Assembly: GCA_030529405.1 (NCBI GenBank)
Contig: JAUMWZ010000002.1
Location: 1 to 30,999, forward strand
Source: Bacteroides sp.
GTDB lineage: Bacteria; Bacteroidota; Bacteroidia; Bacteroidales; Bacteroidaceae
Length of the DNA stretch: 30,999 bases
Direction of reading: 5' to 3'
A program made the position numbers and the translations under genes. The notes under the pieces were generated by a model, which worked only from the letters and a program-made list of their open reading frames with translations, was not told the origin of the DNA and ran no database searches. Shown piece by piece: positions 26,649 to 30,999 of the stretch (positions are counted from its first letter, which is position 1; the number at the start of each line of letters is the position of its first letter).

Positions 26649-26972
26649 ATGTTTTCTTTTTCGCCACAATCTGCTTATGTTCGCAGAGTTATGACTGACG
26701 AAGAATTGCTGTTATATATTAGTGGTATCAAGCTCAATGGTTTCTTTGCCCTCACGGAGATTTCAAAGAGGGGAGAGGGTATGCCTATTGGGGTGGAAGA
26801 GTTTCTACAAACGAGGGTGGAAGATATAATATGCGGTGCCAAGACAAAGAAGTTTGTGTATTCAAACGGTGGTTGGCGTCTTGTGTTTACATTGTTTCCT
26901 ACTACCAAGGTTGTTGAGGAACGCTATGCCGTGAAAAATAAGGTTATGTCCGTGATGAAGAGGAAACTGTAA
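26649..26972 (+). CDS. Hypothetical protein (107 aa)
   Basis: Only substantial ORF in the interval; protein-like composition (KFVYSNGGWRLVFTLFPT); no function recognised. Confidence 0.65.
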   Translation: MFSFSPQSAYVRRVMTDEELLLYISGIKLNGFFALTEISKRGEGMPIGVEEFLQTRVEDIICGAKTKKFVYSNGGWRLVFTLFPTTKVVEERYAVKNKVMSVMKRKL

Positions 26973-27062
26973 TCTTGTGTAGATTGCTGGCTCGTCTTAA
27001 ATTTATCTTTTCTTTATTTTTTCTATTCAGATTGTTTTTAGGCGTGTTTTTGTCTGTTCTCA

Positions 27063-27164
27063 GACTGTATATTGCTGATATGTAAACTGTATATTATCTG
27101 GGATTAAACTATGAATAACTGAAAAATAGATTATATACAGTTTGGAATATGATTGTATATGGTT
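27063..27164. repeat. 22-bp-period palindromic array K (5 units)
   Basis: Units at 27063, 27085, 27107, 27129 (GATTATATACAGTT), 27151; spacers gatatgta, tgggatta, gaaaaata, tggaatat. Confidence 0.88.
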
Positions 27165-27223
27165 AATTTATGTGTTTTGTATAGTCCCTTTCACTGCTGT
27201 ATGTTAGTTTTCAGCAAGACCAA

Positions 27224-27265
27224 ATAAAAAGGGCTGGAAACTTTTCTTTGTGTTCCCAACCCTTA
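27224..27265 (-). terminator. Probable terminator for ompH
   Basis: Imperfect stem AAGGGCTGGAAAC/GTTCCCAACCCTT, followed by TTTAT on the minus strand. Confidence 0.5.
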
Positions 27266-27290
27266 TGTATGTTTTATGTTCTAAATCTTA

Positions 27291-27893
27291 TTACTTCTTC
27301 GCTGAAGTATATCTTGAGTTTAGACCATCTACTATTTCTTTAGTGATGTTGTATGCTTCTTCTGCGTGAAGAATATTCTCAAATCCTGTTCTGCTGAATA
27401 TCATACTGTATTTTTTCTCTGCATTATACTCCTTCAAGTAAGTGCTTATTGAGTCTCTAAGTCTTTGAGTGTTGCTCATGTTTGCTTCTGCCAAACTTCC
27501 TTGCAACTTATTGTTCAACTCTTCCAACTCTCTTTCTTTCTTCAAAAGTCTAGTATATTCTTGTTCTGCTCTCTCTTTAGAAAGGAATGCGTTGTTTTCT
27601 ACTTTTGACTGAAATTCTTGCTTCTCTTTTGCCAATGCGTTAGCTTTTTGGTTTAGCGTAAGTCTTACGTCTTCTGCCTTTTTAACCATCTCTTCGTTGA
27701 TGTCTATGCTTAGTTGATATTTTGTAAGTAGTGAATCAACATCTACATAAGCTAATTTTAGTTCTGAATTTGTAGAAGAATTATTTGCAGAACTAGCAGT
27801 AGATTCAACTTCAGAGTTCTTAGCACATTGTGCAAACAGGATAGCTACTGCCACAATAGTCAATCCTTTCAAAAGAAAATTTAATTTGTTCAT
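27291..27893 (-). CDS. ompH: OmpH/Skp family chaperone, probable lipoprotein
   Basis: Lipobox-like FAQC; LAYVDVDSLL, coiled-coil body, YSMIF, ILHAEEAYNITKEIVDGLN. Confidence 0.88.
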   Translation of the reverse strand: MNKLNFLLKGLTIVAVAILFAQCAKNSEVESTASSANNSSTNSELKLAYVDVDSLLTKYQLSIDINEEMVKKAEDVRLTLNQKANALAKEKQEFQSKVENNAFLSKERAEQEYTRLLKKERELEELNNKLQGSLAEANMSNTQRLRDSISTYLKEYNAEKKYSMIFSRTGFENILHAEEAYNITKEIVDGLNSRYTSAKK

Positions 27894-28290: not shown

Positions 28291-29751
28291 ATGGAAATAA
28301 AAGATTTTAAGTCAGCAGGAGTGTTTAAGTACTTCGAAGAAATATGTCAAGTACCGCGTCCGTCAAAGAAAGAAGAAAAGATTATTCAGTATCTTAAAGA
28401 CTTCGGTAAGAAGCATAATCTTGAAACATCAGTAGATGAGATTGGCAACGTACTTATAAAAAAGCCTGCAACTAAAGGAAAAGAAAACCTAGAAACAGTA
28501 GTGTTGCAGTCGCACGTAGATATGGTGTGCGAGAAAAATAAAGATGTAGAACACGACTTCCTAAAAGACCCTATTGTTACAATAATAGAAGGTGAGTGGA
28601 TGAAAGCTAAGGGTACAACGCTTGGTGCAGATAACGGTATCGGTGTTGCTACTGAACTTGCAATCCTAGCAGATAATACTTTGGAGCATGGACCAATAGA
28701 ATGTCTGTTTACAGTAGACGAAGAAACCGGACTAACAGGAGCATTTGCCCTCAAAGAAGGCTTTATTTCGGGCAATATACTTCTTAACTTAGACTCAGAA
28801 GATGAAGGCGAGTTGTTTATAGGCTGTGCAGGTGGTATAGATTCTGTAGCTGAGTTTGAATATAAGACAGTAGACGTTCCAAAAGATTACTTCTGCTTTA
28901 GAGTGGACGTTAAGGGCTTAAAAGGTGGTCACTCAGGTGGAGATATTCACTTAGGAAGAGGAAATGCGAACAAGATTCTTAACAGATTTCTTGTAAGGGT
29001 ATCTAAGAAATACAACCTATATCTATGCGAAATAGACGGTGGTAATCTTAGAAATGCAATTCCGAGAGAGGCACATGCTGTGTTCGCTGTACCTCAAGAA
29101 GCAAAACACGATATAGTAACTATGTTGAATGTGTTCAATGCTGAGATGGAGTCTGAGCTTGGTGTGGTAGAACCAGACTTGAAATTGATTCTAGAATCAG
29201 AAAACTTCTGTGCTAAAGCAATAGATCAAGACACAACATGTAAACTTATGAGTGCTCTTACTGCTGTACACCATGGAGTTTATGCAATGAGCCACGACAT
29301 ACCAGGACTTGTTGAAACATCTACAAACCTTGCATCTATCAAGATGAAACCGAACAACATTATAAAGGTAGAAACTAGTCAAAGAAGTTCTATTGCATCT
29401 GCAAAAGAAGATATGGCAAACACTGTTCGCGCGGTATTTAACCTTGCTGGTGCGAAGGTTAGCTTTGGTGATGGTTATCCTGGTTGGAAACCTAATCCTA
29501 ATTCAGCTATACTTAAGGTTGCAGCAGAGTCTTACAAAAAACTATTTGGTGTAGAGGCTAAGGTTAAGGCTATACATGCCGGACTTGAGTGTGGTCTATT
29601 CTTAGACAAATATCCTAACTTGGATATGGTTTCATTTGGCCCAACTTTGACTGGAGTTCACTCTCCTGACGAACGTATGCATATACCTTCAGTAGAGAAA
29701 TTCTGGATACATTTGATAGATATATTAGCTAACGCACCGGTTAAGAAGTAA
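28291..29751 (+). CDS. pepD: Aminoacyl-histidine dipeptidase (M20 family)
   Basis: LQSHVDMVCEK, TTLGADNGIG, FTVDEETGL, LNLDSEDEGE, GGHSG.DIH.GRGNANK, IHAGLECG, VHSPDER. Confidence 0.96.
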   Translation: MEIKDFKSAGVFKYFEEICQVPRPSKKEEKIIQYLKDFGKKHNLETSVDEIGNVLIKKPATKGKENLETVVLQSHVDMVCEKNKDVEHDFLKDPIVTIIEGEWMKAKGTTLGADNGIGVATELAILADNTLEHGPIECLFTVDEETGLTGAFALKEGFISGNILLNLDSEDEGELFIGCAGGIDSVAEFEYKTVDVPKDYFCFRVDVKGLKGGHSGGDIHLGRGNANKILNRFLVRVSKKYNLYLCEIDGGNLRNAIPREAHAVFAVPQEAKHDIVTMLNVFNAEMESELGVVEPDLKLILESENFCAKAIDQDTTCKLMSALTAVHHGVYAMSHDIPGLVETSTNLASIKMKPNNIIKVETSQRSSIASAKEDMANTVRAVFNLAGAKVSFGDGYPGWKPNPNSAILKVAAESYKKLFGVEAKVKAIHAGLECGLFLDKYPNLDMVSFGPTLTGVHSPDERMHIPSVEKFWIHLIDILANAPVKK

Positions 29752-29769
29752 TTTCTTAGCTATAAATAT

Positions 29770-29803
29770 AGGCTACCCAATCAATGGGTAGCCTTTTCTT
29801 TTT
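29770..29803 (+). terminator. Intrinsic terminator after pepD
   Basis: AGGCTACCCA/TGGGTAGCCT 10-bp stem followed by TTTCTTTTT. Confidence 0.8.
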
Positions 29804-29843
29804 GTGCATATTACGCACATCTTTCAGCCCACTTATATTTGCT

Positions 29844-30890
29844 ATGAAATCAGTTCTATATTACTTTGTTTTCACACTGTATTTACTTGTGTCGCAAACT
29901 GTATATTGCCAAAAAACAGACTCTATACAGTTTAGAATAATGTCGTGGAACGTTGAAAATCTGTTTGATACAAAACACGACACACTAAAGCAAGACTATG
30001 AGTTTTTGCCAGATACTCTCAGGCGTTGGACAAATACACGTTACAGGAAGAAACTCAAAGATATAGCAACGACTATTGTGTCTGTTGGCGAAATGATACC
30101 ACCGTCTTTGGTGGCACTCTGCGAGGTTGAAAACGAAAAGGTGATGAACGACCTTACAAAGTATTCTCCGCTAAAGAAGATGGAGTATGATTATGTGATG
30201 ACAAACTCTAAGGATTTGCGTGGAATAGATGTTGCACTGCTCTATCAGCGAGCAATGTTTAACCTCATAGAAAGCAGATCTATACGGATAGGTAAGTTTG
30301 ATGATTACCCACCTACAAGAGATGTTCTGCATGTTTCGGGCAGAGTTCTGTCGGGTGATACCCTAGATGTGTTTGTCTGCCATTTACCGTCACGCCGTTT
30401 GGGATATAAGCGTTCAGAAAGATATAGGACACACGTTGCCAAAACGATAAAGACTTATGCCGACAGCATAATGAATATAAGGCAGATACCTAATATTATC
30501 CTTATGGGCGACTTTAACGCTACACTTACCGACCCTTGCATCTGCAAAGCACTGTCTGCAACTCCAACTTCCAAATACACAACCGATAAAGACAAAACTC
30601 TGTTTATTCTCCAACCCAAAGAGTATGGCAGTATCAAGATTGGTACATACAAGTATCGTGGAGAGTGGGAGTTTATTGACCATATAATCATCAGTGGCAG
30701 AATGCTTAACGATAAAAACAAGGTTAAGTATGTAAAAGATAGTGGCAGACTGTCTAAACTCGATTTTTTGTTAATGCCAGACGAAAAGTACAACGGTGTT
30801 CAGATGAACAAAACCTATGTTGGGTTCAGATATAAAGGCGGTATAAGCGACCACCTGCCCGTATGTGCTGACTTCGTCATACACTTCTAA
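29844..30890 (+). CDS. Endonuclease/exonuclease/phosphatase (EEP) family protein, probably secreted
   Basis: SWNVENLFD, LCEVEN, GIDVALLY, TRDVLHV, HLPSR, MGDFN, SDHLPV. Start at MKSV (29844); the ORF-track start 29784 lies inside the pepD terminator. Confidence 0.9.
   Translation: MKSVLYYFVFTLYLLVSQTVYCQKTDSIQFRIMSWNVENLFDTKHDTLKQDYEFLPDTLRRWTNTRYRKKLKDIATTIVSVGEMIPPSLVALCEVENEKVMNDLTKYSPLKKMEYDYVMTNSKDLRGIDVALLYQRAMFNLIESRSIRIGKFDDYPPTRDVLHVSGRVLSGDTLDVFVCHLPSRRLGYKRSERYRTHVAKTIKTYADSIMNIRQIPNIILMGDFNATLTDPCICKALSATPTSKYTTDKDKTLFILQPKEYGSIKIGTYKYRGEWEFIDHIIISGRMLNDKNKVKYVKDSGRLSKLDFLLMPDEKYNGVQMNKTYVGFRYKGGISDHLPVCADFVIHF
29875..29932. repeat. 22-bp-period array M inside the EEP gene N-terminus (3 units)
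   Basis: CACTGTATTTACTT(29875), AACTGTATATTGCC(29897), GACTCTATACAGTT(29919), followed by the family-type spacer tagaataa. Confidence 0.7.
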
Positions 30891-30965: not shown

Positions 30966-30999
30966 AACTATATACAGTTTGCAAATCAGCTGTATATGG
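30966..30999. repeat. 22-bp-period palindromic array L (at least 2 units; truncated by the window end)
   Basis: AACTATATACAGTT(30966)-tgcaaatc-AGCTGTATATGG(30988). Confidence 0.85.

Follow-up and report, generated by a model that had tools for sequence, protein, structure and literature searches.

The window analysed here is a stretch of 30,999 nucleotides from the forward strand of Bacteroides sp. contig JAUMWZ010000002.1, and close to its end, at 29844-30890 on the forward strand, lies a gene for a 348-residue member of the endonuclease/exonuclease/phosphatase (EEP) family. Residues 32-341 of the product match the Pfam profile PF19580 (E 4.5e-78) over positions 2-306 of 311, which represents a full-length domain, and orthologues are present in 39 of 41 relatives. 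The upstream neighbour is a dipeptidase gene (28291-29751), separated from the nuclease gene by a gap of 92 bp. Within this gap is the intrinsic terminator of the dipeptidase gene (29770-29804, forward strand), composed of a 10-bp stem, a 5-nt loop and a T-run, detected in a scan that returned 2 terminator-like sites against 0.1 expected. The gap also holds, on the same strand at 29834-29841, the box TATATTTG, a TAnnTTTG element of the Bacteroidetes -7 type and of doubtful function, which as the first-pass annotation had pointed out almost abuts the ATG at 29844, from which only 2 nt separate it. Downstream of the nuclease gene a repeat array (30966-30999) is cut by the contig end, and a sister species carries a full four-unit array at the same place (L031 4125-4206).

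A second array of the same kind occupies the 5' end of the nuclease gene, where it covers codons 3-32 rather than intergenic DNA. The units were scored with a weight matrix for a palindromic 16-mer (consensus AAACTRTATAYAGTTT, 14.5 bits), built from 86 unselected array-internal, or middle, units with the nuclease locus excluded from them; across the genome the background of this matrix has a median of -26 and a 99th percentile of -2.3. Three clear units span codons 11-30 of the open reading frame (TLYLLVSQTVYCQKTDSIQF), of which codon 11 begins at 29874 and codon 30 (TTT, Phe) corresponds to 29931-29933. Unit 1 (29874-29889, 5.8 bits) is read as T-L-Y-L-L, unit 2 (29896-29911, 12.6 bits) as Q-T-V-Y-C-Q, which includes a predicted cleavage site, and unit 3 together with its TAGAA-type terminal spacer (29918-29939, 14.7 bits) as D-S-I-Q-F-R-I, ending exactly at a second ATG at 29940. 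The unit starts at 29874, 29896 and 29918 are exact 22-bp steps, each one base ahead of the starts in the first-pass annotation (29875, 29897, 29919), which had recognised both this phase and the fact that successive units fall in three different frames, read as L-Y-L, T-V-Y-C and S-I-Q-F. Its placing of the array start at 29852 is accounted for by a degenerate unit 0 (29851-29866, 6.5 bits), which lies 23 bp before unit 1 and is therefore out of phase by one base. With three clear units and a degenerate fourth, set against a family mode of four, the nuclease array appears to be the modal four-unit array in slightly damaged form.

Could a TA-rich signal-peptide stretch resemble three such units by chance? 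The units are weaker than is typical (5.8-14.7 against 10-21 bits), and Tandem Repeats Finder does not report the array at a score of 30, placing it among the weaker members of the family. The controls nevertheless refute chance, leaving it a negligible probability. Triples of equal quality are absent from 20 codon-shuffles of all 1201 long open reading frames (1.2 Mb), and when codons 11-30 are resampled synonymously the mean score is 2.9 (sd 8.3) compared with 33.0 observed, a value reached by none of 20,000 versions. The best triple scores +30.9 in the sister species, where the array is kept despite 14% DNA divergence and where unit 2 is stronger (16.1 bits against 12.6), whilst the 27 orthologous signal-peptide loci from other genera give -22 to -54. 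The pattern is thus absent from orthologues that lack arrays and stands above coding background, on both of which comparisons the first-pass annotation had made its reading depend.

The nuclease array belongs to a lineage-wide family of phased arrays. The 1.66-Mb draft genome contains 518 arrays, with about 1,900 units in all, built from 16-bp palindromic cores placed every 22 bp, and 321 of the 518 have exactly four units. The arrays are largely extragenic: 457 lie outside long open reading frames, and they are found in 68-93% of gaps of at least 200 bp but in 0-4% of gaps below 100 bp. In-phase triples as good as the nuclease triple occur at 869 genome positions, of which 808 are outside and 26 inside long open reading frames. 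The core sequence appears to be private to the source lineage, with no match in 200 sampled other genomes of the family, and a literature search returned neither the core sequence nor anything relevant on 22-bp palindromic repeats in Bacteroidales. An interpretation of the arrays as RNA elements was rejected, given that an Rfam comparison of the window matched two tRNAs alone and none of the arrays, and that the transcribed strand folds in an ordinary manner, with 29830-29960 giving -20.7 kcal/mol (z -0.37 against shuffles).

Whether the array is translated depends upon where the nuclease begins. The public annotation of the contig gives a 316-residue product that starts at M33, i.e. at ATG 29940, and the first-pass annotation had offered the same start (MSWNVEN) as its alternative to a repeat within the coding region. 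On this account the array would lie in a 5' untranslated region of about 90 nt below the TATATTTG box, the open frame upstream would be accidental and the signal peptide would have been lost in the genus. The position of the box lends this some support. Across the genome TAnnTTTG boxes peak 20-44 nt ahead of the first ATG, a 2-nt spacing is seen in none of 1005 long open reading frames, and if the box is a promoter element transcription would begin inside or after ATG 29844. The bases preceding ATG 29940 are A/T-rich, a context that accompanies the choice of this codon by the NCBI pipeline, and the substitution counts look near neutral: the 96-nt region differs between the species and its sister at 4 synonymous and 9 non-synonymous positions, with no clear dN/dS signal.

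Most of the evidence runs the other way. The residues F30-R31-I32-M33 (29931-29942, forward strand) form a family-wide F-R-[V/I]-[M/V] motif that opens the mature domain, and among 137 homologues Phe is found in 135, Arg in 134 and Val or Ile in 136, whilst the final position, the proposed initiator, is split between Val (71) and Met (66). Of the 12 full-length variants read from the sister cluster, 5 have a GTG valine codon at the same position, and the Pfam domain begins one residue before it. At least unit 3 of the array is accordingly coding sequence. Of 19 full-length variants read across the clusters of both species, 18 keep the frame from 29844 unbroken, the sole exception being the shorter NCBI call on contig JAUMWZ010000002.1 itself. 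Replacements among the variants are conservative (L5V, V20I/L, C22S, K24Q, T25A/V) apart from a singleton L12Q, and they preserve both the hydrophobic core and the cleavage rule, with -3 remaining V, I or L and -1 remaining C or S. The sister species has A in place of the last G of the box. Assembled contigs from two RNA libraries, which lack read ends and may include DNA carry-over for so low-depth a gene, span 29778-30005 (run X2) and 29778-29861 (run X1), thereby covering ATG 29844, and over 29778-29861 their depth is similar to that of the gene body. A start at ATG 29940 is consequently improbable and the public 316-residue annotation is probably truncated at its N-terminus. One point against this conclusion is that the F-R codons may in part be produced by the array consensus itself, in that the end of the core (CAGTTT) followed by the TAGAA spacer would encode them in the nuclease frame; a rough estimate puts this coincidence at about 1-2%.

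A start at ATG 29844 would furnish the nuclease with a predicted Sec/SPI signal peptide (29844-29909, forward strand, codons 1-22), in which an MK n-region (K2) is followed by a Tyr-rich hydrophobic core (residues 4-16) and by V-Y-C, with cleavage before Gln23 (29910-29912). Most Bacteroidetes SPI substrates carry Gln at +1, a preference termed the Q-rule (PMC5837995, PMC10653852). The nuclease N-terminus has the features of such signal peptides, namely the n-region Lys, the hydrophobic core, V-x-C at -3/-1 and Gln at +1, and is predicted to direct export and cleavage, much as the first-pass annotation had supposed. It departs from the usual form in its core, which is unusually rich in Tyr (four residues) and falls in the low quartile of family hydrophobicity (1.94, where the family 5th and 25th percentiles are 1.52 and 2.09), a composition that reflects the TATA-rich DNA motif underneath. 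Array units yield hydrophobic, Tyr-rich peptides in any frame, which is a point in favour of the downstream start, and resemblance to a signal peptide is on its own therefore weak evidence. Comparison with relatives adds to it. An equivalent signal peptide is found in 27 of 27 orthologue loci read, many ending xQ, and in every homologue with a full N-terminus, and the length of the N-terminal region is normal, with 22 residues of signal peptide and 7 more to the conserved Phe (3-11 in orthologues).

A start further upstream, at ATG 29784, would give a product of 368 residues in which the array is still coding but lies deeper within a 42-residue leader. Both species have an open frame from 29784, some automated calls use this codon and the RNA-library contigs begin at 29778. 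However, the codon lies within the 3' arm of the dipeptidase terminator hairpin, it is GTG in a sister contig, and in the 20 additional residues the species differ by radical replacements (I9K, S15N, A20T), whereas MK and a single hydrophobic core from 29844 reproduce the canonical form of the orthologues. This start is thus very improbable, and translation is best placed at ATG 29844. RNA-library contigs of the dipeptidase gene itself end at 29727-29773 and have a depth 10-30 times that of the nuclease gene.

A further question concerns how a repeat array came to coincide with a signal peptide. The first-pass annotation had proposed exaptation in the manner of the Rickettsia palindromic elements (RPEs). 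An RPE is an inserted element, folding as a single long hairpin, that lengthens its host protein by a peptide segment which the orthologues do not have. By analogy, a mobile array of about 88 bp would have inserted in frame into the nuclease gene and been recruited as a new signal peptide in place of the ancestral one. The extent of the array (29851-29939, codons 3-32) does approximate to the whole N-terminal extension, the modal size of four units is discrete, and arrays commonly share multi-unit blocks (median best non-self match 43 bp), as copying would give. Against insertion, the best match of the nuclease array elsewhere in the genome is a single unit (24 bp at 96%), with a bit score below the 5th percentile of ordinary arrays, and at one syntenic intergenic site the sister species retains degenerate in-phase units with no clean indel. 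A search for the Y1/RAYT transposase (PF01797) found none in the source genome, which is 77% complete.

The other arrays within genes provide a more direct view. Arrays are present in frame in at least 12 genes that are intact and encode recognised domains, two of these arrays being in signal peptides (the nuclease and a TolC-like protein). Length was compared for four that have usable alignments or domain spans, together with the TolC-like case. PepT aligns without gaps to two solved PepT structures and to six PepTs of the Bacteroides type, as does YfiH to its homologues and DUF2520 to five orthologues, whilst the DUF4131 domain of ComEC has 155 residues for 155 profile positions. The four thus add no length, and in the TolC-like protein the signal peptide exceeds that of two orthologues by 7-9 residues, far below the length of an array. 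Judged by these alignments, in-gene arrays elsewhere in the genome are near length-neutral. For the nuclease, whose signal peptide can be aligned only to the sister species, a length-neutral origin is suggested by these other genes and by its own normal N-terminal length, and an RPE-like insertion is unlikely.

Codon choice within the in-gene arrays bears the mark of the motif. Under synonymous resampling the fraction of versions reaching the observed score is 0 to 0.003 for the remaining 11 in-gene arrays, such that with the nuclease codon choice lies at or near the motif-maximising extreme in 12 of 12. The DNA motif and the protein code are therefore superimposed, and the codons of in-gene arrays are tuned to both. 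At the level of amino acids the arrays appear to override conserved residues only in part. Invariant columns of PepT show no significant excess of changes (2 of 11 versus 29 of 241), whereas those of DUF2520 do (5 of 6 versus 18 of 75, p 0.006). For a GT1 gene with an array, orthologues were not found in five relatives with the query used.

The combination resembles several known systems without coinciding with any of them. As with RPEs, a dispersed palindromic repeat family is translated within intact reading frames of functional proteins, but in-gene arrays here add no length, or only 7-9 residues, and consist of short palindromes set four in a row at a fixed phase, with no unusual folding of the transcribed strand. 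As with the REP, BIME and REPIN sequences of enterobacteria and pseudomonads, the units are very abundant, short, imperfect palindromes, mainly extragenic and clustered in gaps. They differ in their strict 22-bp phase and modal four units, in the RAYT (Y1_Tnp) partner, for which the same 77% complete genome gave no hit, and, compared with REP, in having about 12 copies within genes whose codons are tuned to the motif. Sites such as parS, the Noc- and SlmA-binding sites and DnaA boxes are single sites, present in tens per genome and with known readers. They share with the present arrays the capacity of a palindromic DNA site to sit in coding sequence and place its codons under two constraints, but here about 1,900 units are distributed over 518 arrays of four. 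Finally, the 22-bp iterons of the plasmids R6K and pPS10, of which pPS10 has four, are directly repeated within one replication origin and bind Rep monomers. The tandem 22-bp step, equal to two helical turns, would in both cases align bound proteins along the same helix face; unlike iterons, the cores described here are palindromic and the arrays genome-wide.

The reading that best accommodates these observations, and which is probably correct, is that a genuine though weakened four-unit array at 29851-29939 is overlaid on the coding sequence of a nuclease that starts at ATG 29844. The 92-bp gap between the dipeptidase and nuclease genes is taken up by the terminator and the promoter-like box, and the array lies instead in the first 32 codons, those of the signal peptide and the first mature residues, where the same bases may serve both readings. 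The TATA-rich cores would supply Tyr, Ile, Val, Leu and Thr codons and with them a usable hydrophobic core, unit 2 spells the predicted V-Y-C|Q cleavage site, and unit 3 with its spacer spells the conserved F-R-I. To judge from the other in-gene arrays, coding sequence that already existed would have acquired the array without a change in length, either by point substitutions under selection at the level of the DNA or by short-patch conversion from other arrays. The overlay would have been tolerated since the signal peptide is the least sequence-constrained part of the nuclease.

What might read such a structure? The most likely candidate would be a symmetric DNA-binding protein, four dimers of which could dock on one helix face, docking being the putative function of the arrays. 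A broader and more tentative proposal, which is plausible but on present evidence rather less than even in probability, is that the arrays act as lineage-specific DNA 'punctuation' for a dedicated docking protein, written by point substitution into genes that lack intergenic room. Were this so, selection for the docking site would bend both codon and amino-acid choice, here including a signal-peptide cleavage site, and bacteria would offer an instance of pervasive dual-use coding sequence driven by an undescribed chromosome-structuring system.

Several consequences follow for the gene and for the repeat family. The start codon in the public record is probably wrong, with the outcome that the nuclease is predicted to be cytoplasmic instead of secreted. 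More generally, a dispersed repeat need not be inserted in order to come to lie in coding DNA, and at least 12 genes have a periodic motif of 66-88 bp laid over homologous protein sequence. That their codons lie at or near the motif-favouring extreme points to a force acting on the DNA, whether docking-site selection or biased conversion, that rivals protein constraint, and signal peptides may be the most tolerant hosts for such overlays. Synonymous recoding of the signal peptide would erase the nuclease array and leave the protein unchanged, providing a clean handle on array function.

Some smaller observations relate to possible array-binding proteins and to the draft genome. The core, as CTGT-N4-ACAG, recalls the E. 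coli SOS box. Identity with a LexA/SOS box was considered and dropped, as the Bacteroidetes SOS motifs differ, being GGA-N5-TCC and CTAA-N5-TTAG (PMC8565304). The genome has two HU-HIG genes, one of which has a three-unit array about 310 bp upstream, although 68-93% of gaps of at least 200 bp hold arrays anyway, and the other of which has a different 22-bp direct repeat upstream. Arrays also lie at contig ends about threefold above expectation, an excess which indicates that they contribute to the fragmentation of the draft genome.

The draft genome that holds the window, contig C207, amounts to 1.66 Mb in 247 contigs, with 37% G+C, and is 77% complete. Close to the end of the window lies a gene for an endonuclease/exonuclease/phosphatase (EEP) family nuclease (PF19580, 29844-30890), the domain match of which covers residues 32-341, preceded by a dipeptidase gene (28291-29751) with its intrinsic terminator (29770-29804). 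The beginning of the nuclease gene is overlain by an array of short palindromic units (29851-29939), and a second array, of which a full copy is found in the sister-species locus, starts just past the gene at 30966 and continues to the contig end at 30999. The window contains 26 copies of the ACTGTAT heptamer associated with such units, where 5.9 would be expected, and genome-wide the spacing of consecutive CTGTATA words is 22, 44 or 66 bp. A weight matrix for the palindromic 16-mer was made from 86 units, none from the nuclease locus, which were picked solely for the presence of the core in both ±22-bp neighbours and hence were unselected for their own sequence; its consensus is AAACTRTATAYAGTTT, with 14.5 bits. 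With this matrix the nuclease units score 5.8 bits (29874), 12.6 bits (29896) and 14.7 bits (29918), flanking in-phase positions score -11 or less, and a degenerate fourth unit at 29851 (6.5 bits) is set off by a step of 23 bp. The coordinates and codon numbers of the first-pass annotation, its argument that a 22-bp step places each unit in a different reading frame, and its TATATTTG box are all right on direct reading of the sequence.

In-phase triples at least as good as that of the nuclease are found at 869 genome positions, 808 of them outside long ORFs, in what is 24% of the genome, and 26 inside, and none arose in 20 codon-shuffles of the complete set of 1201 long ORFs. The best triples in the signal-peptide DNA of 27 orthologue loci from other genera score -22 to -54 versus +33 here, and a strict two-unit pattern, of which this genome has 50 copies on each strand, was not found in 200 further genomes of its family, representing 34 other genera. 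Three of the tests that the first-pass annotation had set for refuting the array were run and all favour a real one; the array at the nuclease signal peptide is confirmed.

Where, then, does translation of the nuclease begin? In the public annotation of the contig the product has 316 aa and begins at Met33 (ATG 29940), which coincides with the alternative offered at first pass, where the array would sit in the 5' UTR. Consistent with such a start, the TATATTTG box ends 2 nt upstream of ATG 29844, whereas in this genome the distance of such boxes from the first ATG is most often 20-44 nt, and a distance of 2 nt is seen in 0 of 1005 long ORFs, although the box may not be a promoter, since its G is an A in the sister species. 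An N-terminal signal peptide is nonetheless found in all 27 readable orthologue loci, many ending in xQ followed by F-R-[V/I]-M, and among 137 homologues the residues preceding the Met33 position are F in 135, R in 134 and V or I in 136, with Val (71) or Met (66) at the position itself. In this gene codons 30-33 spell F-R-I-M. On the side of the 29940 start, the F-R codons coincide with CAGTTT, the end of the array core, and with the TAGAA spacer, such that the match could be partly array-driven, and array DNA translates into hydrophobic, Tyr-rich peptide whatever the frame. Public assemblies of the sister species (82% protein identity) have the same start and a closely similar leader, with Val at position 33 in 5 of 12 full-length variants read from the sister cluster. 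The leader replacements are conservative (L5V, V20I/L at -3, C22S at -1, K24Q and T25A/V, with L12Q a singleton). The substitution counts, 4 synonymous versus 9 non-synonymous differences, give no dN/dS signal.

Contigs from metatranscriptome libraries also span the region, at 29778-30005 in run X2 and at 29778-29861 in run X1, the latter as two strain variants with depths of 27 and 28 where the nuclease gene body has 69. When depth was compared over 29300-30500 in four metatranscriptome runs (gut and feline assemblies), the dipeptidase gene had 10-30 times the depth of the nuclease gene; such a difference within runs speaks for RNA as the source of the signal and against flat DNA carry-over. 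Translation very probably starts at ATG 29844, giving 348 residues; a start at 29940 is unlikely in view of the homologue, sister-species and RNA-library evidence, and the public start is probably mis-called, cutting off the signal peptide together with the conserved F-R-I. As a separate observation, three contigs from two runs start at exactly 29778, within the terminator hairpin.

With translation from ATG 29844, the leader is a predicted signal peptide, a reading made at first pass that is well supported by the orthologue leaders, the F-R-[V/I] motif and the sister-species variants. It conforms to the Q-rule of Bacteroidetes signal peptides (PMC5837995, PMC10653852) and is unusually Tyr-rich, with a hydrophobicity of 1.94, between the 5th and 25th family percentiles. 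One unit encodes the predicted cleavage site, ACT-GTA-TAT-TGC and then CAA giving T-V-Y-C↓Q; in the sister species this unit takes the consensus form and reads I-Y-S↓Q. When the peptide of codons 11-30 was fixed and synonymous codons were redrawn from the genome's own usage, the mean array score was 2.9 (sd 8.3), and the 33.0 of the real DNA was reached by none of 20,000 samples. The fractions for the other eleven in-gene arrays were 0 to 0.003, indicating that the amino-acid sequence is already array-friendly and that codon choice is near its maximum.

Counting the nuclease, arrays lie within no fewer than 12 intact genes whose products have recognised domains, the others encoding PepT, YfiH, a DUF2520 protein, ComEC, SbcC, a helicase, Cas9, an HHH-motif protein, a glycosyltransferase, a DUF6048 protein and a TolC-like outer-membrane protein. 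In the Cas9 gene (1216-aa frame, HNH and RuvC-III domains) a 3-unit coding array lies at 2675-2735 of locus L044 (contig C218). A second signal peptide over an array is that of the TolC-like protein (7405-7487 of L036, contig C98, minus strand), with four units of 11.9-19.1 bits and a predicted cleavage at Y-I-Y-S↓Q. The first-pass annotation had likened the nuclease array to Rickettsia palindromic elements (RPEs), which are insertions. Against two solved PepT structures and six Bacteroides-type PepTs, however, the 4-unit PepT region (L033, contig C138, 2029-2110; 14.7, 13.9, 11.9 and 11.7 bits) is gapless, with mean identity of 52% inside versus 68% outside. YfiH is gapless against structure 6dzd, as is the DUF2520 protein against five orthologues (identity 15% inside, 43% outside), ComEC (DUF4131) has 155 residues for 155 Pfam profile positions, and the TolC-like region is only 7-9 residues longer than in two orthologues. 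RPE-style insertion is therefore not supported, there being no added length in four genes and 7-9 residues in the fifth, and the arrays are instead superimposed on pre-existing coding sequence. The nuclease signal peptide (22 residues) and its linker to the conserved Phe (7) are both within the orthologue range. The more interesting result is a lineage-specific periodic DNA motif overlaid on working genes, their length unchanged.

Such an overlay could have come about through point substitutions accumulated step by step under selection on the DNA, or through short-patch conversion from the many donor arrays. Ordinary arrays share multi-unit blocks (best non-self match, median 43 bp), as do some in-gene arrays, that of DUF2520 for instance (50 bp at 90%), and the nuclease array matches others over a single unit only. 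The nuclease and PepT arrays are both older than the split of the two species, the sister-species PepT array being weaker (14.4, 9.0, 0.9 and 5.7 bits). One PepT codon is AAA (Lys) in this genome versus GAA (Glu) in the sister species, and Glu occupies the position in most Bacteroides-type PepTs; the AAA change, which improves a unit, is derived in the present lineage. Judged from aligned loci, arrays seem to weaken or strengthen in place, not as clean indels. A 5-unit array at 27062-27165 corresponds to a degenerate in-phase remnant in the sister species (26960-27300 against 100-460 of L031).

When units are chained genome-wide, 518 arrays result, comprising about 1,940 units, and 321 of the arrays have exactly four. 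Whatever the gene orientation, an array is held by 68-93% of gaps of at least 200 bp, 10-40% where the gap measures 100-200 bp and 0-4% where it is shorter, and occupancy of the longest class is far from the expectation for random insertion. The 92-bp gap between the dipeptidase and nuclease genes is taken up by the terminator and the promoter-like box, and gaps that short almost never hold arrays, from which we infer why this array is in coding sequence: placing it in the first 32 codons, which would be the most change-tolerant part of the gene, would fit if every gene boundary requires one array. A strong unit lies within 60 bp of 19% of contig ends versus 6% expected from unit density, and arrays contribute to breaks in the assembly; 30966-30999 of the window is among the array-bearing ends.

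Palindromic cores at two helical turns, the modal four units, the single array in most gaps and codon-level maintenance within genes suggest that the arrays are cooperative docking sites for a symmetric DNA-binding protein on one helix face, more than an element of RNA or of the classical mobile kind. None of the arrays in the window has a match in Rfam, and a Y1 transposase was not found in this genome at 77% completeness. The core sequence was not found in the literature searched. Two genes of the HU-HIG protein family (PMC5499826) are present, one with an array about 310 bp upstream, which carries no weight because array density is so high. Directly upstream of an HU-HIG gene, at about 10146-10189 of contig C91 (locus L052), another 22-bp direct repeat, CAGTCTCATCGGGATAAGA plus 3 bases, is present in two copies.
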